Shown here: in pieces, positions 4,008 to 32,101 of the stretch
Numbering within the stretch: the stretch's first letter is position 1
Layout: each line of letters starts with the position of its first letter
Origin: an uncultured Planctomycetota bacterium
GTDB lineage: Bacteria > Planctomycetota > Planctomycetia > Isosphaerales > Isosphaeraceae
DNA length: 64,000 nucleotides
Assembly (NCBI GenBank): GCA_963845755.1
Contig: CAWJTV010000025.1
Coordinates: 32,001 to 96,000, forward strand
Direction of reading: 5' to 3'
The notes under the pieces: generated by a model
Told to the model about the DNA's origin: nothing
What the model saw: the letters and a program-made list of their open reading frames with translations, nothing else
Database searches by the model: none
Program-made: the position numbers and the translations under genes

Positions 4008-7000
4008 ATGAACCTGAACCGACCATCGACCCCAGCGGAAAGAGCCACCGTCACGGCCTTCGATTCCAACCACCACCGACTGCGACGCCCGAAGTCCTTC
4101 GCTGAGACGCGGAGGTCCCGCGCCCTTCGGCCGCTGCTGGAGACATGCGAGACCCGCAGGCTCATGAGTGCCGGGGTCGCGGGGAGCGCAGGAACCAAAG
4201 CACAATCGATGCTCATGGCCGCGCCTGACTTGAGAAAAGGAGTCTCTCAACCTATCGCTCCGCTCGAGTTTTCGGGTGTGAGCCTGACCCCGGGCTGGTC
4301 GGACCGTCCCATTGTTCGGTACCTTGGACCTCACTTTCCCCCTGAGGAAGGCAAGCAAGTTTACTGGCACCCTGGTCCAGGCGCCGGGCAGCACCTCGTC
4401 CGTAGTCGGCAAGGGGCCACTGGTGGCGTCCGGCCACACCCTGGCCGTCAAGGGCAGCTTACATAACCAAATCATGAAACTGAACGTGCGCATCGCACCG
4501 AAACGGTGGGTGCAGTGGATCGGCCCGGTCGTGTCGGCGAGGCTGCCCGACGGCCAGATCACGTTGGACGGGGGCGGTGTGCTGGCCAGCGGCAATCAGA
4601 TCGCGGGCGATGCGATCCGGCGAGGAAAAGCAACAGTGCTGAATGCTCCTGCGTTGCAGCCTCACTTCCGCGTGCCGGCCAAGGGCACTCCGAGCACGGG
4701 CACCTTCACTCTGCATGGCCCCAGCGCCGTCCTGCCCGCGGACACACTGCAGAATCCCAGAGCCGTGAAGCGCATCATCCCGGCCGGGACCACGCTGGTA
4801 CCGACCGCCTTCCTTGGCCAGGTGACCCAGGGCCCGGACAAGGGGTTGGCCGTGCGCGGGGTGCTCTCGCTGGGCCAGGTGGGCAGCGACGGCTCGATCG
4901 CCGGCACCCTGGCCGACCCGATCAACGGCCCCGTACCGGTCACCGGCCGGGTGGTGGGGCAGCGGATCCAGCTCAACTTCAACCTCGGCTCCAAGGGTAC
5001 CGCCGGGGGTGTCGGGCCATTCATCGCGAAACGGGTCGGGCCGGGCCAGATGCAGTTGACCGCCTTCGGCTCGCTCCAGACCGGCAACCCGGCCGACTCC
5101 GGTGACTGGTCGTACATTAATAGCGTGCTCAACAATATGACTCTCAGCAATCTGACAGGTTACGTCCTGAACCAGGACGGCGTCTATCTGATCGGGACGA
5201 ACTTCACGGGGACAACCTTTTCGCAGGCCACTCTCACCGACTCGGAGGTCGATCCGACGGTCCAATTCCTGAACGCGGACTTCTCTGCCGTCCCAGGGGG
5301 AGCGAACCTCACTAACACCACGTTCCTCAGCGGCTCGAGCCTCGCCGGGACCAAACTGAGTGCGGCCAATCTCACCGGGGCCAATCTCACCGGGGTGAAT
5401 CTGACCGGGACCAATCTCACCTCGGCCAACCTCGCCAGTGCCAATTTCACCGGGCAATCCCTGGGGGGATACAATCTGACCGGGGACAATCTCACCATGG
5501 CGAATCTGACCGGGGACAATCTCAACGCGTCGATTCTGACTGGGACCAATCTCACCGGGGCCAACCTCACCAATGCCGCAGTCGGCGGGCCGATCGCCGG
5601 CACGGGGCAGAACTTGTCGGGATTCAATCTGACCGGGACAATCCTGACCGGGGCGACTCTGGCCAAGGCCAACCTGACCGGGGCGACTCTGACCGGGACC
5701 AATCTCACCGGGGCCACCCTCACCAATGCCACCCTCACCGGGGCCACTCTGTCGGGTATCCAACTTGATCGGAGCCAATCTGTTCGGAGCTGCCCTGAAT
5801 AATGCCAATCTGGCCAATATCACCCTGAACAACACGACCAACCTGGTCGTGACCAACCTGGCCAATGCCAATCTGACCAATGTCAACCTGTACTCTGTAC
5901 ATATGGGCGAAGCCAACCTGGCCGGGGCCATCCTGACTGGGACCAACCTGGTCGATGCAATCATGACCTACGACAACCTGGTCGGCCAGAACCTGTCGGG
6001 ATTCAATCTGACTGGGACGTATCTGGGCGGGACCAACCTCACCAACGTCAACCTCACCGGCCAAAACCTGTCTGGATACAATTTGAACGGGGGCGTCCTG
6101 ACCGGGGCCATCCTGACCAACACCAACCTGACCAAGGTCGGCTTCGTGAACTCCACCCTTATCGGGCAGAACCTGTCGGGATTCAATTTGACCGGGGACT
6201 ATTTGGAAGGGACCATCCTGACCAATGCCAACCTCACCGGGGCCAACCTCACCAATGCCGTCATGAACGGGACTAACCTGTCGGGATTCAACTTGACCGG
6301 AGCGACTCTGACCGGGGCGTTTCTGACGGGGGTCAATCTCACCTCGGCCAACCTCACCACCGCTACGCTCACGGGAGAGAACCTGTCGGGATTCAATTTA
6401 ATCGGGGCTAACTTGAACGGGGCTGTGCTGAACAATGCCAATCTGGCCAATGCCAACCTGAATAACACGACCAACCTGGTCGTGACTAACCTGGCCAATG
6501 CCAACCTGACCAATGTCAACCTGTACTCGGAATCTATGATCGAAGACAATCTGTCCGGGGCCATCCTGACCGGGACCAACCTGGTCGATGCAACCATGTA
6601 CTACGCCAACCTGGTCGGCCAGAACCTGTCGGGATTCAATCTGACCGGGACCGCTCTGACCAATGCCAATCTCGCCAACGTCAATCTCACCGGGCAAAAC
6701 CTGTCTGGATACAATTTGAACGAGGCCGTCCTGACCGGGGCCATCCTGACCAACACCAACCTGACCAATGTCAGCTTCGTGAACTCCACCCTCATCGGGC
6801 AGAACCTGTCGGGATTCAATCTGACCGCGACCCTCCTGGGCGGGGCCAACCTCACCAATGCCAACCTCAGTGGGGAGAACCTGTCGGGATTCAATTTGAC
6901 CGGGGCCAATCTCAGCGGGGCGACACTGACCGGGACCAATCTCACCTCGGCCAACCTCACCAATGCCAGCCTCACCGGGGAGAACCTGTCGGGATTCAAT

Positions 7001-8011
7001 CTGACCGCGACCCTCCTGGGCGGGGCCAACCTCACCAATGCCAACCTCAGCAGCCAGAACCTGTCGGGATTTAATCTGACCGGGGCCAATCTCAGCGGGG
7101 CGACACTGACCGGGACCAATCTCACCTCGGCCAACCTCACCAATGCCAGCCTCACTGGGGAGAACTTGTCGGGATTCAATCTGACCGGGACCCTGCTGGG
7201 CGGGGCCAACCTCACCAATGCCAACCTCAGCAAGCAGAACCTGTCGGGATTCAATCTGACCGGGGCCCTCCTGGGCGGAGCCAACCTCACCAATGCCAGC
7301 CTCAGCAAGCAGAACCTGTCGGGATTCAATTTGACCGGGGCCAATCTCAGCGGGGCGACACTGACCGGGACCAATCTCACCTCGGCCAACCTCACCAATG
7401 CCACTCTCACCGGGCAGAACCTGTCGGGATTCAATCTGACCGGGGCCCTCCTGGGCGGAGCCAACCTCACCAACGTCAAACTCACCGGACAGAACCTGTC
7501 GGGATTCAATTTGACCGGGGCCAATCTCAGCGGGGCGACACTGACCGGGACCAATCTCACCTCGGTCAACCTCACCAATGCCAACCTCACCGGGCAGAAC
7601 CTGTCGAACTTCAACATGACCGGGGCCAATCTCGTCGGAGCGACTCTGAGCGGTGCCATCCTGTCCTTAACCAATCTCACCTTCGCCAACCTCACCGGGG
7701 AGAACCTGTCATTAAGTAATGTTAATTTGACCGGGATCTACCTGATGAATTCCACCTGCACCAACGCCAACTTCTCCGGGCAGAACATGTCGGACTACTG
7801 GTTCAACGGGACCAACTTGGCCGGGGCCAACTTCACCAACGCCAACATCGTGGGGGCAAACCTCTTCCTCAACGTCCAATACGGCAACGTCACCTTGGAC
7901 AACCTCACCGGCGCCAACATGGACGGGGCCAATGCAAGTGGGATTCTGACCCTTTCGCAATGGTACTCCATCCCCAATCTCACTTGGAACTCGACGACAA
8001 ACTTTGGTTGA
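4008..8011 (+). CDS. Exported pentapeptide-repeat protein (about 1330 aa; frameshifts near 4300 and 5757)
   Basis: N-terminal planctomycete export motif (RRSRALRPLLETCETRRLMS), a beta-rich domain, then about 900 aa of ANLTG/QNLSG/FNLTG repeats across ORFs 4312..5802 and 5726..8011. Confidence 0.85.
6800..7620 (+). repeat. Near-perfect 180-bp (60 aa) tandem units inside the pentapeptide gene
   Basis: Sequence 6901-6960 is identical to 7081-7140. Similar periodicity continues to about 7600. Confidence 0.8.
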
Positions 8012-8233
8012 CTAGCATAGGAGACGGGACCGATCTGCAAATAAGGGTTCTCCCGCACTTTTGATGGTGACACTGACTGTGCCACTTGGAGGCCAAACGA
8101 CTGCGAATCCCGTCAAAATGGGGGGCTTCTGTGGGAGTTGGCCGTCGTGGATCATCAAAAAGTGAGGGAGAACCCCTCGGAAACCGTCGCTGACAGGCTT
8201 TGCCCACAAAGGTTTTATGGGCACTGACTTTAT

Positions 8234-9854
8234 GCAGTAGTTTCCCGGAAGAAGTGCACTCGATTACTGATCAGAAGTACCGTATTGAAAGCGGCGTCTC
8301 CTGGCCGGAACCTGCCGGGTGGTGACAAACCCATGGCCCCGACACAGGAGACGCACCATGACCGAAGCTACGCTCACCTGGTCCATCTGGCAAGCTCTGC
8401 TCGAGGCCTTCGCCTGCTCGTTCACCCGCCGCGGCTTCCGCCGCTTCGCCGAGTGGATCACCGCCATGGCGCTCAACGTCGAGGAGCACACCATCACCCA
8501 GTCGGTCCTGGCCCTGGAGCAGCCCGCCGCCTGGAAGGCCCTGGAGAACTTCGCCGAGTACGGCGGCTGGCACGAGGGCCGCGTCACCTACGACCTGACC
8601 CGCCTGGTCGCAGACCGCCCCGGGTCGGATCTGGCACGGCTATCACGTCTCGGCCGTCGACGACACCAAGGTCCATCGCGGCAGCCCGCACGTCTGGGGG
8701 ACCTGCACCTTCCACGAGTACACCGCCCGCTGCCCCAATCGGGCCTCCACCGTCCGCGCCCATAACTGGGTGGTCCTCGGCGCCGTGCTCCACGAGCCGA
8801 GGAAGCCCGGCTGGTTCCTGCCGATCACCGGCCGGCTCTACTTCCGCAAGTCGCAGTTGCCGGCCGGCCCGGCCGGCTCGTGGCGTTCCGGACCAAGTGC
8901 GAGTTGGCCGTGGAGTTGTTCCGCGAGCAGGCGCGGATCGCCCCCGGCCACAAGCACCTGGGCGTCGTCGACGGCGGCTTCGCGCTGCGGAGCGTGGTCC
9001 GACCGCTGGTCCTGCCCGAGGACGGCACGCCCCGGATCGACTTCCTGACCCGGCTGCGGCACGACGCCCGGCTCTTCGCCCTGCCCCCGCCGAGCGCCCC
9101 GCGGGGAGTCGGGGGCCCAAGCCCAAGTGGGGCCGGCGGCTGGAGCCGCCGTGCCGAGGCGGCCGGTGGAAGGTGGAGTGGCGAACCGGCAGCCGCCTTC
9201 GTCTACGGCCGCGAGCGGAAGGTCCGCTGGAAGGAGATCGTGTGCCTGTGGCGGGTGCTGGGATGGGAGGTGCCGGTCAAGGCGATCGTCGCCGAGGTCG
9301 AGGGGTACAAGAAGCGGTTCACCTTGGTGACCTCGGCGATGGAGCTGACCGGGCTGCAGATGGTGGAGTTGTTCGCGGCGCGGTTCCGGCAAGAGGACGG
9401 GTTCCGCGACCTGAAGCAGCGGCTGGGCTGGGAGGAGTGCCGGGCGTGGACGAGCCAACCCGATCGAGCGGACCAGCCAGGCGCAATGGGTGACGATGAG
9501 CCTGCTGCGGCTCCTCCAATTCCGGCTGGAGGCGGCCGGGGAGGAGGATTGGTGGTTCCGACCGCCGTGGAACAAGGACAAGGACCGTCCCAGCGTGCTG
9601 GACGCGGAGCGGCTGATGCGGCGGCATCGGGCGGAAATCCAGCGGCTTCTGTCGGAGTGGCTGGGAGATGAGGGAGAAACCGAGGAGGCCGTGGCATGAG
9701 CGAGGTGTAAGCGGGTCAACAGCGGGCATCGCGAGGTGCTCCCGCGGGCGGTGCAGCAGCGAGAAACGCTCGGTGGCGAGGTGGGGCCGCCGCGGCGACA
9801 GGCGGCGGTACGCATCAGGCCGCGATTGTGCATTTTTTCGCAGGAAACTACTGA
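8234..9854 (+). mobile_element. IS701-family insertion sequence nested in the left end of the larger transposon
   Basis: TIR core CAGTAGTTTCC (8235-8245, inverse 9843-9853). TTAT is duplicated at 8230-8233 and 9855-9858 if one mismatched terminal base is allowed. Confidence 0.75.
8358..9699 (+). CDS. IS701-like DDE transposase (several frameshifts)
   Basis: Motifs AVDDTK, AHNWVV, RLYFRK, FRTKCELA, VVDGGF, TRLRHDARL and FAARFRQEDGFRDLKQRLG across ORFs 8319..8765, 8770..9048, 8880..9671 and 9490..9699. Confidence 0.75.
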
Positions 9855-9933
9855 TTATCCGGCGCCAAAAGAGTCGGGCCAGCAGTTTGGCCGGCCCGCA
9901 CTGCGTGCGCCACTGAATATGCAAAAATGTTCA

Positions 9934-10489
9934 TTAGAACGTTGGCGAGCACTCAGATGACCGCTTCGTCGATGTCGTCGAAGCCGCGACCCTCTTTGGT
10001 CTTGGGAAGATCAGCGACTTTTGGCAAGAGACCGCGCTTCTCCTCAGTGCGGTGAGCTTCGTGACGAGCACATATGGCTCGATGTAGAGATCCGTTTCCT
10101 CGTGGAACTCCTTAGCGATGAGTTCCGAGATGTCCTCATCGTAGGAGAGGACATCGGAGCCGTTCTCCAGGACAGTTACGTTGTCGTAATAGATGCCGAC
10201 AAGCACCTCAGTCTGTTCGGCCGTAAGCTCGGGCAGAGGCGGCAAACTGCGGTGGTTGTCGCCGAGTTGCACCCAGCGTGCCGTCTTGCGTTGAACCCTC
10301 ATGTAGTGCACCAGATCCTGCGCGGTATCCGAGCAATTTGACAGAGTGCGCCACTCCTGGACGAATGCAGCTTTCTCCGCGGGGAATCCGTCGAACGAAT
10401 CGACGGGGATGCGATACTTCAGGTACAGCTCGACCAGAAGAGCGCAGTTCGTGCTCAAAGAGCCGGATTGACTTCCTCCGAGTCTTCAC
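9934..10489 (-). CDS. Hypothetical protein with two internal helical repeats (frameshifted at both ends)
   Basis: Starts MKTRRKSIRL. Unit 1 LLVELY..D..F..EW..LVHYMRVQRK and unit 2 VLVGIY..D..IAKEF..LVTKLTALR look related. Confidence 0.5.
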
Positions 10490-10598
10490 TACGATATCCC
10501 TCGTTCAGTGGAAGGGACGGCGGTCGAACTCACCATAAGAACGATCGCCGTCCCCGATACCTACTTCACCTCTTGACCGTCCTCTCCCGTCGCCCCAT

Positions 10599-11751
10599 TT
10601 AACTCAGGTCTAAATGCGATCTGAGAGTAGGATTTTCCATCAAATTGTTGTCGCCCTCGTTGGACGGCACTGTTTGGGCGGCTTCTTCGATTCGCTTTTG
10701 CAACTCATCGTGCCGGACGCCGGTGATTCGCTCCGCGTCAGCCCAACTGAGTTTCTTCGTGTGAATCCCGGATTCAAGCATCAATTCAAAATTGATTGCT
10801 CTGTCCCGCCACACATAACCGGGCTCCCTCTGCCGCCACCCGCGACGGATCATCTCGGACCATAGCCATCGCGATGTCGTGGTATTGATGATGCGTTCCT
10901 TCTCGGCCATGTGGACCATCGCGGCTAGTGAAACGCCGAACCTCTCCTTGTACTGGATCAAGTTGAGAAAGGATTTGCCTTGGAATGCGGCCCTTAGCTG
11001 CGAAGCCGGGATCAGCAGTGACGAGGCGAACGAATAAGCCCGCCGTTCGACATCAGAATCGGTCCAACCATGAAGTTGGCGGCATCCCTGATAGAGCGGT
11101 TGTCCCAATTCGTAAGCGGCATTCATCGCGGACCCGCTCGTTCGCAACGCCGGGATTGAGGACGACGACAAATTCATTCCCGTATTGCGCGAGCAGCTCC
11201 ATCGATACCGAAAGTGGTCTTAATCTCCAAAGCCCATGCCGAGAACGACTCCAGGACATTAACCATGTTCTGGATTGGCTGTTCGTCAGAGAGATTCAAG
11301 AATTTTGAACGAACCATGTTCGCCAGGTCGTCGGGCGAGTCCTCATGGATATTTAAGGACTTGGAATGATGTGACGGGTGGCCTTTGAGGAACCCATCTA
11401 GCTTCAGATAAGCTTCTACCCACTTGCCAGCTAGAGCCTCGAATTGCCGCTGATCGTTAAGCGGACGCGGGACCTCATGTTGCGATAGCGAAAGCAGTCG
11501 AGAGTCGTGCGGTTCTCCAGGAACCAATTCAAGGGCCTCCCATAGATGTCCGCCAGAGCCGCCAATACGTTTATGGGCGGCACGGTAACGCTCTTCTCGT
11601 AGCTGGCGATGGTCGTATGAGAGACAGTAAGTCTATGGGGAAGCTTTTCGGCCGTCGGCTCTCATCGATAAACCGGCTTCCCGCTAGCTTCTCGGAGACG
11701 TCGGGCTAAGTTGCGATCAAATAGAGTGACGATGGTTTTTTGCCACAGCAT
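10599..11751 (-). CDS. XRE-HTH + ImmA/IrrE-family metallopeptidase fusion (multiple frameshifts)
   Basis: RBS AGAGGAG then ATG at 11751. LARRLREA..HTTIASYEK..PPINVLAALAD (HTH), then IDG..VVVLNP..ERVR, AYELGQ at the HExxH position, ERRAYSFASSLLIP and KERFGVSLAAM. Confidence 0.7.
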
Positions 11752-11926
11752 TGCTCCTCTGTTCTACTAGCTTTACAAATCAGCATTTCGATCGCAAGGC
11801 CAATTCCGGAATTTTTGCGTCCGGAAGTGAGAGAGCCGAGAGACGGGCTACGACTCCAGTTCTGTGGTTCCTAAAACCTTATTGGACTGCAATTTATGTC
11901 AGCTTGATTGGGTTAGACCCAAGCTA

Positions 11927-13285
11927 TCATTTCGGCGAATTGATCCGCCGCGGCGCAGAGCTCGGTTTCAATCGGGTCGGCCAGGCCGATTCATCCTTCC
12001 AGAACGTCGCTTCGATCCCGAGTTCGTAATGACTCTGGATGAGGCAGCAGATGTTGTGACAAAGTACTTTGGCGAGCGACTCATTGATCATCGCGGTATC
12101 GGTCTTGCTCCGGAGCGAGTCACCGAACTTCGACTTGATCATCGATGTTGGTCGTCTCGATGTTCGACCTTTTGTGATAATGGCGCCAGGAACTCATCCG
12201 GTTCAGGTTGTAGAGGTGGAACATCTTGGAGAACAGGCCGCCCTTGGCAGCGGTAGTGTTGCTCTTGGGGAGGATGTACGGCGTGCCCCGGCCTGCCCGA
12301 CCATCTCGACGTTTTCGTAACTCAGGTAGGCTGAATCGGCTGAGACTTCCCGAATGCGGAAGTTCTGCTTGGTTGCGTCGAACAGTGGGTGCGAATTGCG
12401 GGCAATCCTCGGCATACCGCTCCCCGATCTCAACCGCCGTTACGATGTTGGTCTTTATGCCGCAAGTCAGATGGACTTTCACCCAATCGTATTTCTGACG
12501 GGGCTGATCCGTACTTGTGATCGAACCAACGGACGAACCGGCGATGGTTGCGAATCCGGACGAGTCGATCGCGAAGTCCTGTTCAACCGATTTGAGAGGC
12601 AGGCTGGACTCCCGATTAGCCTCTTGAGGATCGGCGTCAGCCCGGCCATTTCGAGGTACTTGAAGACCGTGTTGTAATGGGGCGCTACTCGATATGCCCC
12701 CGATCGCACGCTTCGTTCAGATCGCATTGGAACTGCTGGCCCGATACCGTCGAGTAGACCTTGAAGACGGCCGCAAAGATGATGTCACGCAGCGACAAGC
12801 GGGGCCTTCCCTTCTCTTGAGGTGGTTCCTCGATGCCCTGGCAAAGGTCTGCCAGCAACACGTGAAACCTATCCTTCTCGTTGGTCTGAGCCTTGTTGTA
12901 CGCCGGCCAGACCTGCTTGTAAGTGGGCTTGGCGTGCGACCGTCTTCTTCATCACGGTGGTCTCCGTGATGGTCTCGACGGCCGTTTGCGTGGCCTCGTC
13001 GGTCTTCGTTACGGTCTCCGTGACCTTCATCGCTTCCGTTGTGGTGGTCGTCCCATCCTCATTGGCTTCCCGTTAAGCGACGTACTCGACCGCAAAAACA
13101 TGCTTGCACTTCTGCTGACGAGACTCGAAGTCCATACAAGTGCACGTCGGCTGCTCCAGATCGAGCCGCACCCAATAGTTGCCACCGCTTCCGGATTGCG
13201 TGGGAACGGCCCAATGGCCGCTTTTCTTCTGGGTAACCTTGCAAAGAGCCGCGATCATCAAGCCGCGTTGCTGACGAGGGTCCAT
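11927..13285 (-). CDS. SWIM zinc-finger + IS5/IS903-like DDE transposase (many frameshifts, one in-frame stop)
   Basis: N-terminal CTCMDF..CKH (SWIM). Then WPAYNKAQ, FAIDSSGF (D1), WVKVHL, VSADSAYLS (D2) and YHKRSNIETT..MIK (YREK motif). Confidence 0.8.
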
Positions 13286-13301
13286 CGGAAACTCCCCAGG
13301 A

Positions 13302-13392
13302 CTACTAGGCTGATTTCTACTAGTAGTATATACCAATAGGGGTTGCTCTGTCAAGAGTCCCGGTATATACTTCTGGTAGTATTTTCTAGTAG
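13302..13392. promoter_or_regulatory. Overlapping divergent sigma70-type promoters inside an inverted-repeat operator
   Basis: Minus strand TTGACA (13354-13349)-18 bp-TATACT (13330-13325). Plus strand TTGCTC (13343-13348)-17 bp-TATACT (13366-13371). 18-bp IR at 13317-13334 / 13362-13379 (16/18). Confidence 0.65.
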
Positions 13393-13407
13393 CAGGGGGT
13401 TCCACCA

Positions 13408-13585
13408 ATGAAAGAGAAGCCGATCGGGATGGTTCCATTGCCTGGGTGCCGGTGTCGGTGTGGGCACGAGTGGCTTCCACGCGACGCGGCCGAGAAGCCT
13501 GCGCGTGTGCCCCAAGTGCAAGAGTCCGAACTGGGATCGGCCCAAGCGCGTTGCGAGCAAGGTGCAACGTGAAGGTGATGAGTGA
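13408..13585 (+). CDS. Small zinc-ribbon protein (about 58 aa; +1 frameshift near 13501)
   Basis: Reads MKEKPIGMVPLPGCRCRCGHEWLPRDAAEKP-RVCPKCKSPNWDRPK when one base is removed. Absent from the ORF track. Confidence 0.6.
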
Positions 13586-13822
13586 CGCAGAGCAATCGTG
13601 CTCGGGTCGAAAGCTAGACCAGCCGCCTAGCTGCGAGTCAGGCGTGATGTTGTTGGATTAGTGTACGGGCGATACAGCGTGTTGTGTCACGCTCCACGGT
13701 GTGAGCATTAGCGTCTAGACCCTTTGTTATTGCTGCTCTTGACGTTGCGCTTGCGAACTGCCTAGAATATTGATCGAATTTGTTGAATGTATTGCCGGTC
13801 GCGATCGAATCGGGACGACGTT

Positions 13823-14080
13823 ATGGACGAGCCTATCCGCCGCCAGGTGACGCCGGCTCCTGGCCGTGATCCGAAGGAAGGTCTGCTAGTTGACGTCCGT
13901 CAGTCTCACGAGCATTGGAGCCAGTATTTCCTTGCAGACGGAACTATTCTGCGGATCAAACCGCTCGTCACGGAGGTTGTTAGGCTTGATGATGAGTTGG
14001 ATTCCGCGGGCAATCCAACGTACGTTCTAAAGGCAACCCTCATAACTGCCGTAATCAAGGGATCGGGATCATCGGAATAA
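13823..14080 (+). CDS. Small conserved-looking hypothetical protein (transposon passenger)
   Basis: EHWSQYFLADGTILRIK..V.R..D..GNPTY. First gene of a tightly spaced three-gene operon. Confidence 0.6.
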   Translation: MDEPIRRQVTPAPGRDPKEGLLVDVRQSHEHWSQYFLADGTILRIKPLVTEVVRLDDELDSAGNPTYVLKATLITAVIKGSGSSE

Positions 14081-14092
14081 CGGAGGACTTAC

Positions 14093-14542
14093 ATGATCTT
14101 CACCCTTTCGACCGCCGATAATACTCTCAGATTGGATTCCTTGGTTGCTGGGAACACTTATTATTATGACAATATAGTTTGCAGATTAGAGGAGACGATT
14201 GTGCCACCGCCTAGCCCGATCTCAACAGATCAGGACGACGGGGCCGCCAGCCAGACTCAGCATCAATTTGAGGTCCTTGCCCGTCAATGGAAAATTGCAT
14301 CTCGTCGGATGGCGACCGTCAGAGAGATGGTCAAGCATCCGGCCTACAGAGAAATCATTGGCATGGGTGATATCGTGGTGCCGATGATACTGCGCGAACT
14401 CGAACAGGCTCCCGACCATTGGTTTAGCGCCCTGAAGACGATTACGGGTGTCAATCCAGTTCCTGAAGAGCACAGAGGCGATCTCAGGAGCATGGCCGAA
14501 GACTGGACCAAGTGGGGCCGGGAGAATGGATACGAGTGGTAG
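14093..14542 (+). CDS. Helical hypothetical protein, possible partner/immunity of the next gene
   Basis: RBS GGAGG. F..LA.QWK..HPAYREIIGMG..PMILREL..PDHWF.AL..ITGVNPV..W..WG. Overlaps the next ORF. Confidence 0.7.
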   Translation: MIFTLSTADNTLRLDSLVAGNTYYYDNIVCRLEETIVPPPSPISTDQDDGAASQTQHQFEVLARQWKIASRRMATVREMVKHPAYREIIGMGDIVVPMILRELEQAPDHWFSALKTITGVNPVPEEHRGDLRSMAEDWTKWGRENGYEW

Positions 14543-14987
14543 AGACGCCGAACTAGAAGATATGTTTCCAGGGCTTCGGACCACCCCATATCACATCCAC
14601 AGAGAAGAAACAGGACTTTACAATTGCATCGCATGGGCTGCTGGCGATGATACGCGATGGTGGGAGCCTGACGAGGACGGTATCGAATACTGGCCGCCCG
14701 CAATACCACGTGAATACACGATAGACGCATACGTCGCTGCGTTCGAATCTCTTGGTTACGCAAAATGCGACGACGCAAGTCCTGAATATGGATTTGAGAA
14801 GGTTGCCGTCTACGCAAAGGACGACGAGCCGACACATGCATCACGCGAATTCGGCAATGGCATATGGACTAGCAAGCTTGGTCCTCTTCAAATGATCAGC
14901 CATACCTTTGACGCTCTCAATGGCGTCCGATACGGGTCACCGATTCAGATACTCAGGCGTCCCCTCGCATCGCCTGATATCGCCTAG
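14526..14987 (+). CDS. Papain-like Cys-His hypothetical protein (DUF7689-like)
   Basis: YNCIAWAAG..WWEP..YWP..EKVAVYA..PTHA..WTSKLG..YG; catalytic-looking Cys and His. Confidence 0.65.
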   Translation: MDTSGRDAELEDMFPGLRTTPYHIHREETGLYNCIAWAAGDDTRWWEPDEDGIEYWPPAIPREYTIDAYVAAFESLGYAKCDDASPEYGFEKVAVYAKDDEPTHASREFGNGIWTSKLGPLQMISHTFDALNGVRYGSPIQILRRPLASPDIA

Positions 14988-15416
14988 TCTTCCCAGGTAC
15001 TACAACTTGGCCATCACGCCTATTCTGACTTTATGTGCGCCGGCCTGCTACTTCTCGACGTATTAGGCATCGAGCGCCTCTTGGATTCCCCTCGTTTCGT
15101 CATCGCCGCCCCATCGATCGATTTTATAGGCAACCGCCCGAATTTGTGTTTATGGGCAGGTTTGTGTGCAAAGCCTCGCTGACAGTCTAGGCGTCTGGTA
15201 GAGCTTAAGGTTTTTGACGAATCTTCTGATTGGCGAGATTGTTCGTATTACCATGATTGCGGGGAAAAAATGATCTCGGCGGGCGGTCCCGCCGATCCTC
15301 CTGGGTATTAGAACGCGAGGGACGGCGGTCGAAGGTCCGTCTCTCGGAGGACGGCGCGTCCAGCGGCTCGTTGGCTGTCGCCCCGGGAAACCCCAAGGGA
15401 GAGGCGACGGAACGCC

Positions 15417-17521
15417 ATGCGATGGTCGAGGTTGCGCGATTCCCGTCCACGTCGCAGGTGGGACGGGGCTGTCGGCCTGTCGTATGACCAGCTCGAGCCG
15501 CGATTGCTGCTCAACGCGCGGGTCCCGCACGCCACGGCGGATGTCTCCTCGAACGTCGCCAGTGGTGCCGACATCGCTCCCGGCGTGCATGGCTACGACC
15601 CGACCAATCCCACCGATCCCTCCGCGCCGCCCTTGCCCGACCAGGTGCTCACGACCGGCGATGTGAAGGCGCTCTTGCAACGGGCCGCGGCGGCCACCGA
15701 CCTGAACGACGCCATCATCGCCGTCGTCGACCGCAACGGCACGATCCTGGGCGTCCGGATCGAGAGCGGTGTCTCGCCGCAGATCACCGACAATGTGACG
15801 AACAAGGTCTTCGCCATCGATGGCGCCGTCTCGCTGGCGCGCACAGGCGCCTCTTTCGGCAACGACGCGTCGCCCAATACCTCCCGCACCGTCCAGGGCA
15901 TCAGCCAGACCACGGTCACCCAGCGCGAGGTCGACTCCAACCCCGACGTCCCCGACCCCGGCGGCAACTCGACGATCTACGGTCCGGGCTACGTCGCGCC
16001 GGTGGGGATCAAGGGGCACTTCCCCCCGGGCATCCAGTTCACCCCGCAGGTTGACCTCTTCGACATCGAGAGCACGAACCGGGATAGCATCAGCAATCTC
16101 ACGGGCACGCGGTTCAACGTCCCCCCTCAGTACGTCCCGGCCGGCGCCAACCTCGTCGCGCCGGAGTCGTACGGGCAGGTCACGGGCCTCTTGCCCACGG
16201 CGCAGTCGCGAGGGGTCGCGACCCTGCCCGGCGGCATCCCGCTGTATAAGAAGCAACCGGATGGGACCTTCGCCGAGGTCGGCGGCATCGGCGTCTTCTT
16301 CCCCGGCACGACCGGCTACGCCACCGAGGAAAACTCGACCCTGAACACGCCCTTGTTGCGCGACAAGAAGAAGCCGGATTACTCGGACGTCGCCGAGTAC
16401 ATGGCCTTCGTGGCGGCGGGGGGCAGCTCGGCGGCCGGGGTGCCTTTCAATGGCCCGATCAACGGCGCGCGGCGCTGCCCAATTTCACCGAGCCTTTCGG
16501 CCGGATCGACCTGGTCGGCATCACGCTCAACATCTTCGGCCGCGGCGGCCTGGAGGGGATCAAGAACGTATTGAGCTACGGCGCGAAGTTCGGCGCGGGG
16601 AGTCCGGATGACGGCACGGACCAGCCGGTTGACGCCCAGGGGGATATCTACCTGCCCGGCCAGGGTGTGCCCTATGGCTGGCTGGTCACACCCCACGCCG
16701 GCGGCGACCTGACCGCGGCCGACGTCGAGGCGATCGTCGCCCGCGGGATCGCCGAGGCCGGCCAGGTCCGTGCCCAGATCCGACTGCCCTTGAACAGTAC
16801 CACCCGGATTGTCTTCGCCGTCAGCGACGAGAACGGCAACATCCTCGGCCTGTACCGTATGCCCGACGCCACGTATTTCGCGATCGGCGTGGCGGTCGCC
16901 AAGGCCCGCAACGTCGCCTACTACGACAATGCCAGCCTGCTCCAGCCGGCTGACAAGATCAAGGGGATCCCGGCCGGTACGGCGCTCACGGCCCGGACAT
17001 TTCGCTACCTCTCGCTGCCGTTCTTCCCCGAGGGCATCGACATCAACCCGCCCGGCCCGGGCTCGATCCTCAACGATGGCGGCGTGACCAAGTACGGCAC
17101 GACCAAGGGCGCGCCCCTGCCGGCCAAGGCCTTCCAGAGCCTCCAGGGCTACAACGACTTCAACCCCAACACCAACTTCCGCAACCCCGATAACAAGGCG
17201 AACCAGAACGGCGTGGTGTTCTTCCCCGGCAGCGCGCCGTTGTACAAGGACGTCACGGGCACCGGGGCATCCAAACAGATCGTCGGCGGCCTGGGGGTCA
17301 GCGGCGACGGCGTGTTCCAGGACGACGATGTGACGGCCGAGGCGGCGCTGGCGTACGCCCCGCCCAGTCGGAAGCGCGCCGATATGGTGAAGGTCCGCGG
17401 CATCCGCCTGCCGTTCTTCAAGTTCAACCGCAACCCGCACGTGCCGATTGGCGGTCCCAAGTATCACATAGGATCACCCCTGCCCCTGCCCTTGCCGGCG
17501 CCGCAAAAGAAGAAGGCGTGA
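15417..17521 (+). CDS. Exported protein with two GlcG/HbpS-type heme-binding domains (frameshift near 16470)
   Basis: LEPRLLL export motif; IIAVVDRNG..GGIPLY..VGGIGV; FAVSDENG..VAVAKARN..VGGLGVSGDG. Confidence 0.75.
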
Positions 17522-17537
17522 TCCTGGGAGGAAGCTG

Positions 17538-18036
17538 ATGCGAGCATCCGTGTTGCGATCGGTCCTGGCGGGCCTGGTCCTGGCCTCGGGCGTCACGGCG
17601 TGCGCCGAGGACCCGCCCCGGCGATTCCACCTCTTCGCCCGCTATCACCAGAAGAAGCAGGGGACGCCCCCTGCCGGCCAGCCGCGGTGCATCCCGCACA
17701 CCGACGACCGCGCGGGCGACCCGCGGGCGCTGCCGATCACCTGGAACCGAGCGTGACGCCTGGCGGCATCGGTTACGATGTCGGCGGTGGCGTCCCGATC
17801 TGCCATGGCGGTGGTGAGTGCCGGCGACGCGACGAGGGGACCTGGGGCTGGGATGAGACCGGCACCTCGCATTTCCGCCAGCGCGTGATCCTGGGCTGGT
17901 CACACGGGCGCAAATACCAGGGCGGCACGGGCGCGTATCGCGTTCGAACGGGCCGGTCGTCCCCGATCTCATCTATGCCGCCACGGGAACGTTCAACAGT
18001 CTGGGACGACGCCAACGGGGCCCTGAGCAGGAATAG
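17538..18036 (+). CDS. Small exported hypothetical protein (frameshifted)
   Basis: Signal-like MRASVLRSVLAGLVLASGVTACA, continuing in the next frame GYDVGGG..EGTWGWD..LGWSHGRKYQGGTGAY. Confidence 0.5.
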
Positions 18037-31469: not shown

Positions 31470-32101
31470 GTTTAACAAAAAGTCAACCATCGGGATCTCG
31501 ATGTCTTTCGCGGCCTGTCTGAGATGCCTGTGATTCTTCATTTGGCCGTTGCCGCATCCTGCCGCGCGCGGCACACTGGACGGGTCCGACAACGGCAAGG
31601 CGACCCTCGTCATCTAGGGGATGAAATCATGACTCACCGAACTCTGCTGTCCGCCGTACGTGCCCTGATGACACCGACCGTTCGCATAGGTCCCGTCGTC
31701 GAGAGCCTGCCCCCGCTGCCGGAACCCCTGCCAGCCGGCCGAACAGGTCCTCCGCGCCTTGATCGCGTGGCATGGGGGTACGGCCGGTGCCATCGTCGCG
31801 CTGACGGAGGGACTGGATAGAGCATTTGGCGAACCCTACGTCGATGACGAGCAATACAACGCCATCAAACCACGCCTCGAACGGCTTGACGTTTGGGCCA
31901 GCGGACGCATGATCGATGAAGCGGTCCACGAGGAACGCATCCAGGCGGCTTGTGCAAGATACGGATACAAGTGATGATCGCCTGAAAGCCGTTCAACTCC
32001 GTGAGTCGAGGCGGCCATGTTGTCAAGGAGACCGGCCTCGGCACCCAAAATCATACGGCGGGGAATCGCCCGGAGGAATCGGACCATCGCGAGGAGGCAG
32101 T

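Follow-up and report, generated by a model that had tools for sequence, protein, structure and literature searches.

Here we show that a 7-kb segment of a planctomycete contig is bounded by the ends and the target duplication of a family of cargo-carrying transposons whose layout recurs across several phyla. The segment lies in a window of 64,000 nucleotides (positions 32,001 to 96,000 of contig CAWJTV010000025.1, assembly GCA_963845755.1, from an uncultured member of the Isosphaeraceae), and positions given below are those of the window unless a contig is named. Positions 8196-15175 very probably represent one non-composite unit transposon, which would have inserted as a single piece, has since died, and belongs to a widespread family of fixed layout. 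As we read it, that layout would run from a left (L) end through variable passenger genes, a small divergent DNA-binding gene, a transposase of ~450 amino acids (aa) and optional further passengers to a right (R) end, the transposase itself consisting of a SWIM zinc finger at the N terminus, followed by a linker and a DDE core like that of IS903.

The element measures 6980 bp, or ~5.4 kb minus an insertion sequence (IS) nested within it, and has a copy number of one in the 14.27-Mb, 49-contig genome. Its left inverted repeat, GGCTTTGCCCACAAA, begins at 8196, and its right end, ...TTTGTGTGCAAAGCC, finishes at 15175 (reading GGCTTTGCACACAAA on the other strand); both repeats start with GGCTTTG, 14 of 15 bases match, and an exact 9-bp target-site duplication (TSD), TCGCTGACA, abuts each of them. 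We calculate that chance alone would place an exact 9-mer repeat directly outside such an inverted pair ~2e-4 times per 64 kb. The ends and the perfect duplication are located as the original prediction, made from the letters of the window and their open reading frames (ORFs), had described them, and the heptamer recurs around relatives. The guanine-plus-cytosine (GC) content is 51-58% in the element interior, ~70% in the nested 1.6-kb block, and 64-70% in the right flank. Nested IS aside, repeat analysis revealed no further repeat/duplication pairs within the interior, and no Rfam family matched in 7000-16500. The features of the element and the evidence for each are as follows.

8187-8195, no strand: left copy of the TSD TCGCTGACA, 9 bp (exact repeat)
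8196-8233, plus strand: R-type end, 3' of the transposase, comprising the terminal GGCTTTGCCCACAAAG and a subterminal region; it resembles the R end of relative L004 most
8234-9854, plus strand: nested IS701-like IS, ~1621 bp (own repeats, flanking TTAT, ~70% GC)
8358-9693, plus strand: IS701-like transposase pseudogene with 5 frameshifts (83% identity, 371/446, to an intact 470-aa same-genus homologue)
9934-10458, minus strand: 174-aa ORF of no known family, downstream of the RmrA-like gene (Pfam, NCBIfam, PADLOC, protein atlas)
10599-11760 (upstream limit approximate), minus strand: broken gene for an XRE helix-turn-helix (XRE-HTH) plus M78-peptidase protein, RmrA-like, that is, of the RosmerTA antitoxin type (Pfam, NCBIfam, PADLOC)
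11913-13285, minus strand: SWIM-finger DDE transposase pseudogene (83% identity, 379/455, to the relative P0042 when read through)
13393-13582, plus strand: small zinc-ribbon gene (CxxC...CPxC), frameshifted, divergent from the transposase (profile match in two frames)
13787-14080, plus strand: 97-aa passenger ORF of no known family (Pfam, NCBIfam, PADLOC)
14093-14542, plus strand: 149-aa ORF of no known family, forming a putative two-gene module with the DUF7689 gene (paralogous pair on contig C36)
14448-14987, plus strand: DUF7689 protein (PF24738, E 3.8e-37, Pfam), likely start ATG at 14526
15142-15175, minus strand: L-type end, 5' of the transposase, with the terminal GGCTTTGCACACAAAC from 15175 down to 15160 (end comparison)
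15176-15184, no strand: right copy of the TSD TCGCTGACA, 9 bp (exact repeat)

End searches were performed on 80 of 471 genome loci, retained with 10-kb flanks. The search was seeded solely on an exact 9-bp direct repeat spanning the transposase gene, after which the adjacent 16 bases were checked for inverted symmetry, and the top candidate had GGCTTTG-type ends at 46 of the 80 loci. An exact heptamer at both ends together with an exact 9-bp duplication was found at 42/80 loci, enclosing 2667-5959 bp (median ~4.27 kb), and seven further loci had heptamer ends with the duplication offset by one base. All 49 relatives so delimited measure 2327-6513 bp and always carry extra genes; none is a bare IS of ~1.5 kb. 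Of 40 loci with a full-length gene in an independent set of metagenomes, 18 displayed the same pattern of ends at 3.1-6.1 kb, several of them being the same element from different samples. Distant end pairs with 9-bp duplications thus recur in the scan of 10 kb on either side of the gene that had been proposed as a check on the original prediction. Across the 49 delimited elements, the distance from the transposase start to the upstream end is 777-4186 bp (median 2088 bp), and that from the transposase stop to the downstream end is 27-132 bp in 24 elements and 332-2878 bp in the other 25. An end-like repeat beside the transposase gene, such as would delimit a core IS, was found in none of the 49. 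Close terminal repeats without cargo, which had been named as evidence to the contrary, were therefore not encountered, nor did NCBIfam, PLSDB plasmids or the full-text literature yield a catalogued group of this layout, and the proposal of a non-composite cargo transposon family driven by SWIM-DDE transposases is supported.

GGCTTTG starts the inverted repeat at all 100 ends of 50 elements. The two ends of the relatives are otherwise asymmetric: the end upstream of the transposase has a direct second copy of the motif at ~bases 23-34, and the other end has an inverted copy at ~bases 32-40. The window ends obey this rule, the right one being L-type, with a direct second copy (AAACACAAAT) at 15151 down to 15142, and the left one R-type; the latter is interrupted by the nested IS 38 bp from its tip, and its inverted copy is degenerate and abuts that IS. 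Directly upstream of the transposase and divergent from it, a zinc-ribbon gene of 50-70 aa was recognised by profile at 37/80 loci and, in frameshifted form, in the window. Other divergent small genes are of the ribbon-helix-helix type (RHH, NikA-like; 14/80 loci, and also beside a relic on contig C13 described below) or of the HTH_3 type (10/80), and the remaining 19/80 were assigned to none of these types. Judged by profile and position, the zinc-ribbon gene of the window is a conserved part of the family and not cargo.

Relatives have recently moved as whole units with their cargo. L007 and L013, from different genomes, share 93.5% identity over 99% of 4.37 kb, including restriction-modification genes, and are flanked by different duplications. 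L025 and L027 are 100% identical 2474-bp copies that lie 250 kb apart in one contig, each in a GGGGTACCCC palindrome, with otherwise unrelated flanks (212 and 215 mismatches in 300).

Target sites of the relatives were reconstructed in 41 cases. At L006, L017, L018, L024, L028, L029, L030, L036, L037, L039, L078 and L082, the duplication lies on the loop of a perfect GC-rich hairpin of the type CCCTCTCCC-NNN-GGGAGAGGG; elsewhere the target is a run of G or C, for example TGGGGGGGT or ACCCCCCCT. A strict hairpin test (3-base loop, exact centre) was passed by 4/41 sites versus 6/8200 controls, and a looser one (perfect stem of at least 7 bp), which is exploratory in that its criterion was chosen after the sites had been seen, by 12/41 versus 25/8200. 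Folding energy did not differ significantly between the 41 sites and nearby controls (p = 0.067). Together, these site sequences suggest that some members of the family choose their targets by structure or motif. The insertion site in the window does not lie in such a hairpin.

Proteins of the family were gathered using as query the N-terminal relic of a second copy on contig C13. At least 324 proteins of ~430-470 aa were retrieved at E <= 0.001; for the 120 listed, Pfam assignments to SWIM and/or DDE_Tnp_1 were available in precomputed form, and these proteins are named only "transposase" or "hypothetical". The 471 loci, found in contigs of one genome per species, span Planctomycetota, Acidobacteriota, Alphaproteobacteria, Chloroflexota, Verrucomicrobiota and one Methanocellaceae archaeon, with taxa as given in record titles. 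The N-terminal SWIM signature CxCx9CxH is conserved, as are two aspartates and the motif Y-x2-R-x3-E-x6-K; D241, D316, Y369, R372, E376 and K383 (P0042 numbering) are invariant or near-invariant in 105 sequences. Five intact relatives scored 90-109 bits against the NCBIfam model IS5_2 (NF033579), whose cut-off is 140, and so did not pass it. Structure prediction from the 105 sequences gave a mean predicted local distance difference test (pLDDT) score of 90.1, and an earlier 14-sequence model (mean pLDDT 62) was discarded. The predicted fold matches DDE transposases in Foldseek, where Tn5 transposase is best overall with a template-modelling (TM) score of 0.40 and ISCth4, of the IS256 family, is the top match by E-value (1.8e-5, TM 0.27). 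A sequence search of solved structures found none for the family transposase, and no record with a full-length relative was found among PLSDB plasmids, where the best partial matches were IS903B transposases (26% identity over residues 118-410). A metagenome scan with P0042 returned full or long matches of at most 58% identity. The second family relic itself, at C13:205929-209134 (L002), encodes at 1037-1956 the first ~165 residues of a SWIM-DDE transposase, followed by a break; a divergent RHH (NikA-like) gene lies upstream of it, and PIN-type and other small toxin-antitoxin-like ORFs surround it.

The window transposase was read by frameshift-tolerant alignment to P0042, its closest intact relative (453 aa, with the same Thr-rich insert). 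The gene starts at 13285 and, read through, ends at ~11913. It encodes a SWIM finger (PF04434, E 3.8e-6, Pfam), then a Thr-rich stretch, then DSSGF, SADSAY and YHKRSNIE...K motifs, and the read-through product retains all of the D, D, Y, R, E and K catalytic residues. The reading frame is broken by nine frame changes and two compensating ones (lesion sites include 12934, 12687, 12610, 12545, 12507, 12389, 12289 and 12143) and by a TAA at codon 71 (13075). The central position, the SWIM finger, the Thr-rich linker and the DDE motifs reported earlier are all present; the gene is nevertheless a pseudogene, and its limit lies at ~11913 rather than at 11927. Judged by its reading frames, the window copy of the transposon is dead.

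The nested IS701-like IS has 11-bp inverted repeats, CAGTAGTTTCC, at 8235-8245 and 9843-9853, and is flanked by TTAT at 8230-8233 and 9855-9858; a 4-bp duplication is typical of IS701. A 263-aa fragment of its transposase scored 85.6 bits against NF049999, below the cut-off of 170 that applies to the whole protein, and the intact same-genus homologue carries DDE_5. Metagenome contigs from soil, wetland and mine drainage contain many relatives of this IS (85-99% alike) across window positions 8230-9839, and the remainder of the 7.4-kb region is essentially absent from the same four metagenome runs.

Passengers are present on both arms of the window copy, the R arm holding the XRE-M78 gene and the 174-aa ORF, and the L arm holding the 97-aa ORF and the pair formed by the 149-aa ORF and the DUF7689 gene. 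The XRE-M78 gene matches PF06114 (Pfam), the NCBIfam spr1629 family below its cut-off, and RmrA in PADLOC (E 3e-16); its coding sequence is spread over at least three frames and contains an in-frame stop, and YELGQ stands in place of the HEXXH site. It is thus like the RosmerTA antitoxin RmrA in its XRE-HTH plus M78-peptidase architecture and its PADLOC match, and unlike it in being frameshifted, in having lost HEXXH and in having no recognisable toxin partner, so that the two intact genes of a RosmerTA system are not seen here. The neighbouring 174-aa ORF may be the toxin partner, by its position; no toxin family matched it in Pfam, NCBIfam, PADLOC or the protein atlas, where it falls in unnamed clusters only. 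The 149-aa ORF had no usable match in the atlas, and NCBIfam and PADLOC gave no match for four of six window ORFs. An adjacent pair homologous to the 149-aa ORF and the DUF7689 gene lies at C36:80672-81268 (41-47% identity), and the 149-aa ORF recurs without its partner on contigs C28 and C10; from this recurrence, the two look like a conserved two-gene module. The count of six passenger genes in the original prediction holds only in part: passengers do flank the transposase on both sides, but one of the six is the nested IS, several of the listed ORFs are pieces of the single broken XRE-M78 gene, and the zinc-ribbon gene belongs to the family and not to its cargo.

Cargo across the family is diverse. 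Clustering of the 238 ORFs that reach 70 aa in 50 elements gave 163 clusters, mainly singletons, and 137 and 139 cargo ORFs were scanned with Pfam and PADLOC, respectively. Restriction-modification genes were found in 13/49 relatives, and comprise a type IIG or type I-like methylase with a specificity subunit, a NotI-like enzyme with a C5 methylase, a D12 methylase, and an N4/N6 methylase fused to Mrr. Other cargo includes PIN, HipA-like, SocA/Panacea, AbiLi/AbiLii, PD-T4-6-like kinase and NYN proteins, DUF433 with PIN_10, and an integron-cassette protein; two relatives, L019 and L038, hold nested foreign transposases. Most cargo ORFs had no Pfam or PADLOC match. The toxin- and defence-like character ascribed to the cargo consequently holds for the family, and only in part for the window copy. 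Close relatives by transposase often carry different cargo (L072/L080; L015/L031/L044), and we infer that cargo is exchanged.

Several features flank the element. Window 8029-8175 is a repeat of ~130-150 bp that ends 12 bp before the insertion site and has inverted arms of 18 nt (8045-8062 and 8158-8175, 94% complementary); copies of 75-81% identity lie on contigs C29, C33, C17 and C36, and it may be an element of the miniature inverted-repeat transposable element (MITE) or repetitive extragenic palindromic (REP) kind. No link between this repeat and target choice was shown. Just left of the element, window 5726-8011 holds a 761-aa ORF that consists almost throughout of pentapeptide-type repeats (NLTGANLSG...) and is strongly repetitive within itself at the DNA level. 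The right flank at 15205-18036, including a 385-aa ORF at 15417-16574, is matched at 87% identity by a 2.86-kb paralogue at C36:64727-67587, whose homology starts 30 bp from the duplication.

Other histories can be set against that of a single unit. A smaller element might have inserted and part of the interior might have come later by nested insertion or rearrangement, in which case not all of the passengers were ever carried by the transposase; we consider this unlikely. Such an arrival is proven for the IS701-like IS, which has repeats of its own and a TTAT duplication, foreign transposases are nested inside L019 and L038 as well, and the passengers of the window were found in none of 145 related loci, so gain of some of them after insertion is possible. 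However, the interior is uniform at 51-58% GC outside the nested IS, compared with 64-70% in the right flank, and no second repeat/duplication pair was seen inside it. The ~5.4 kb that remain without the IS fit the family range of 2.3-6.5 kb, and passengers on both arms are common, 25/49 relatives having 332-2878 bp beyond the transposase. That the window instead holds an ordinary short IS5-family IS among unrelated host genes, with the distant repeats and the duplication due to coincidence or to another element, has next to no probability in our estimation. The inverted repeats are admittedly short (15 bp, one mismatch), but their arrangement is expected by chance only ~2e-4 times per window, the same heptamer and 9-bp duplication bound 42/80 relatives at 2.7-6.0 kb, the L and R types lie on the same sides of the transposase as they do in relatives, and no end-like repeat stands beside any transposase gene.

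It is also quite improbable that the element is intact, and perhaps active, with frameshifts that are assembly errors. In favour of such errors, all lesions but one are indels of 1-2 bases (11 in the SWIM transposase, five in the IS701-like gene, others in the XRE-M78 and zinc-ribbon genes), soil-metagenome contigs of the IS701-like IS differ from the window by single-base indels at or beside four of its five frameshift sites (8611, 8881, 9193 and 9453-9456), and no reads from the source sample were found in public runs. Long ORFs elsewhere in the same window (909, 1099, 1124, 1429 and 1598 aa) are uninterrupted, so general indel noise in the assembly is unlikely; a homopolymer run occurs at only one of nine indel contexts, and neither the TAA nonsense codon nor the lost HEXXH site is an indel. 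To the absence of the window passengers from related loci must be added further observations that weigh against a dead single-unit transposon. No public sequencing run contained more than 7% of the sampled words, and those words covered the nested IS alone: four runs aligned over 7.4 kb covered only ~8230-9839, plus scattered low-depth pieces, and gave nothing on frameshifts or excision. At 30/80 loci the repeat-seeded search yielded no end pair and at 4/80 unrelated weak chance pairs, some of these loci being on short contigs. Neither a second copy nor an empty site of the window element was found. The empty-site check proposed in the original prediction was run and yielded none: the right flank at 15176-16600, used as probe, was not found in a same-genus genome, nor in usable form in 40 relatives, and the C36 paralogue diverges 30 bp from the insertion point and so offers no empty site. 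For lack of a second copy or empty site, the case that the window element moved as a 5.4-kb unit rests on its duplication and on its relatives.

For the single-unit transposon, a mechanism can be outlined by analogy with IS903 and Tn5. The transposase would bind the terminal 16 bp of each end together with the second motif copy ~10-20 bp further inside, direct at L and inverted at R, and would cut at the GGCTTTG tips; joining to a target cut with a 9-bp stagger would then produce the TCGCTGACA duplication. Extra DNA binding is the probable contribution of the SWIM finger, and regulation of the transposase that of the small upstream gene, though both roles are guesses. After the insertion, the IS701-like IS would have landed 38 bp from the R tip, with duplication of TTAT, and frameshifts would thereafter have accumulated in both transposases, the zinc-ribbon gene and the XRE-M78 passenger.

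Among named elements, IS903B is the best match, as the original prediction had proposed in pointing to the IS903 group. The IS903B end, GGCTTTGTTGAATAAATCAG (read from a plasmid), shares the GGCTTTG heptamer and matches the family end consensus at 12/16 positions, and both the IS903 group and the family make 9-bp target duplications and have a DDE core with Y-x2-R-x3-E-x6-K. Paracoccus elements of the IS903 group, as listed in Table 2 of PMC3281130, are 1050-1054 bp long with 15-27-bp repeats and 9-bp duplications. Against the ~1050 bp and single gene of the group as represented in that source (PMC3281130), the family spans 2.3-6.5 kb and always includes at least 777 bp of extra DNA. It differs further in its ~450-aa transposase with an added SWIM finger and linker, its divergent small gene, and its unlike L and R ends. 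By size, gene count and NCBIfam score, the family falls outside the IS903 group; it works like IS903 and is not a member of the group as defined.

Composite transposons have two full IS copies. The window element resembles those of the Tn903 type in that passengers lie between outward-facing IS903-type ends, and differs in having one transposase and no internal ends that could be found. Cargo-carrying IS are known as a class, the "transporter IS". In being single units with defined ends and variable passengers, the elements are also like unit transposons of the Tn3 family and Tn7-like kind, but they rely on one IS903-like DDE protein, no resolvase or TnsABC-type set was seen in Pfam scans, and they are much smaller. 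Tn7-like elements are described in PMC8649781 as mobile units with variable passengers, often defence systems. Mutator-like and IS256 transposases likewise combine a SWIM finger and a DDE domain in one protein, and ISCth4 is the top Foldseek match by E-value; the family transposase departs from them in its TM score (0.27 to ISCth4 versus 0.40 to Tn5 transposase) and its IS4/IS5-type YREK signature. In Mutator elements the SWIM finger is C-terminal. A search of full-text literature, with ISfinder and TnCentral outside its range, found no description of SWIM-DDE IS903-like cargo elements, and a search on the end heptamer returned primers only; the family is apparently unnamed.

The window copy, a fossil, contributes little except a further member of the family. 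Small single-transposase IS are usually thought to carry their own gene only. In this family, 1-4 kb of additional genes regularly travel with an IS903-like enzyme; roughly one in three of these genes is recognisably of the defence or toxin-antitoxin kind, and the pattern extends over at least five bacterial phyla and one archaeon. A wider reading, on which we are evenly divided, is that SWIM-DDE elements form a distinct, phylum-spanning class of miniature gene shuttles descended from an IS903-like ancestor, with a cargo bay, an exchangeable regulator (zinc ribbon, RHH or HTH) and one large branch that homes to GC-rich hairpin repeats or terminators, at their tips. If this holds, soil bacteria and archaea would possess in them a major, still unnamed means of moving genes for restriction-modification, toxin-antitoxin and abortive infection, whether within or between these organisms. 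To name and catalogue the family would benefit the annotation of proteins now labelled only "transposase" or "hypothetical" and would help to account for the spread of defence genes in soil microbes; it would also make available for study a compact one-protein cargo transposon with defined asymmetric ends.

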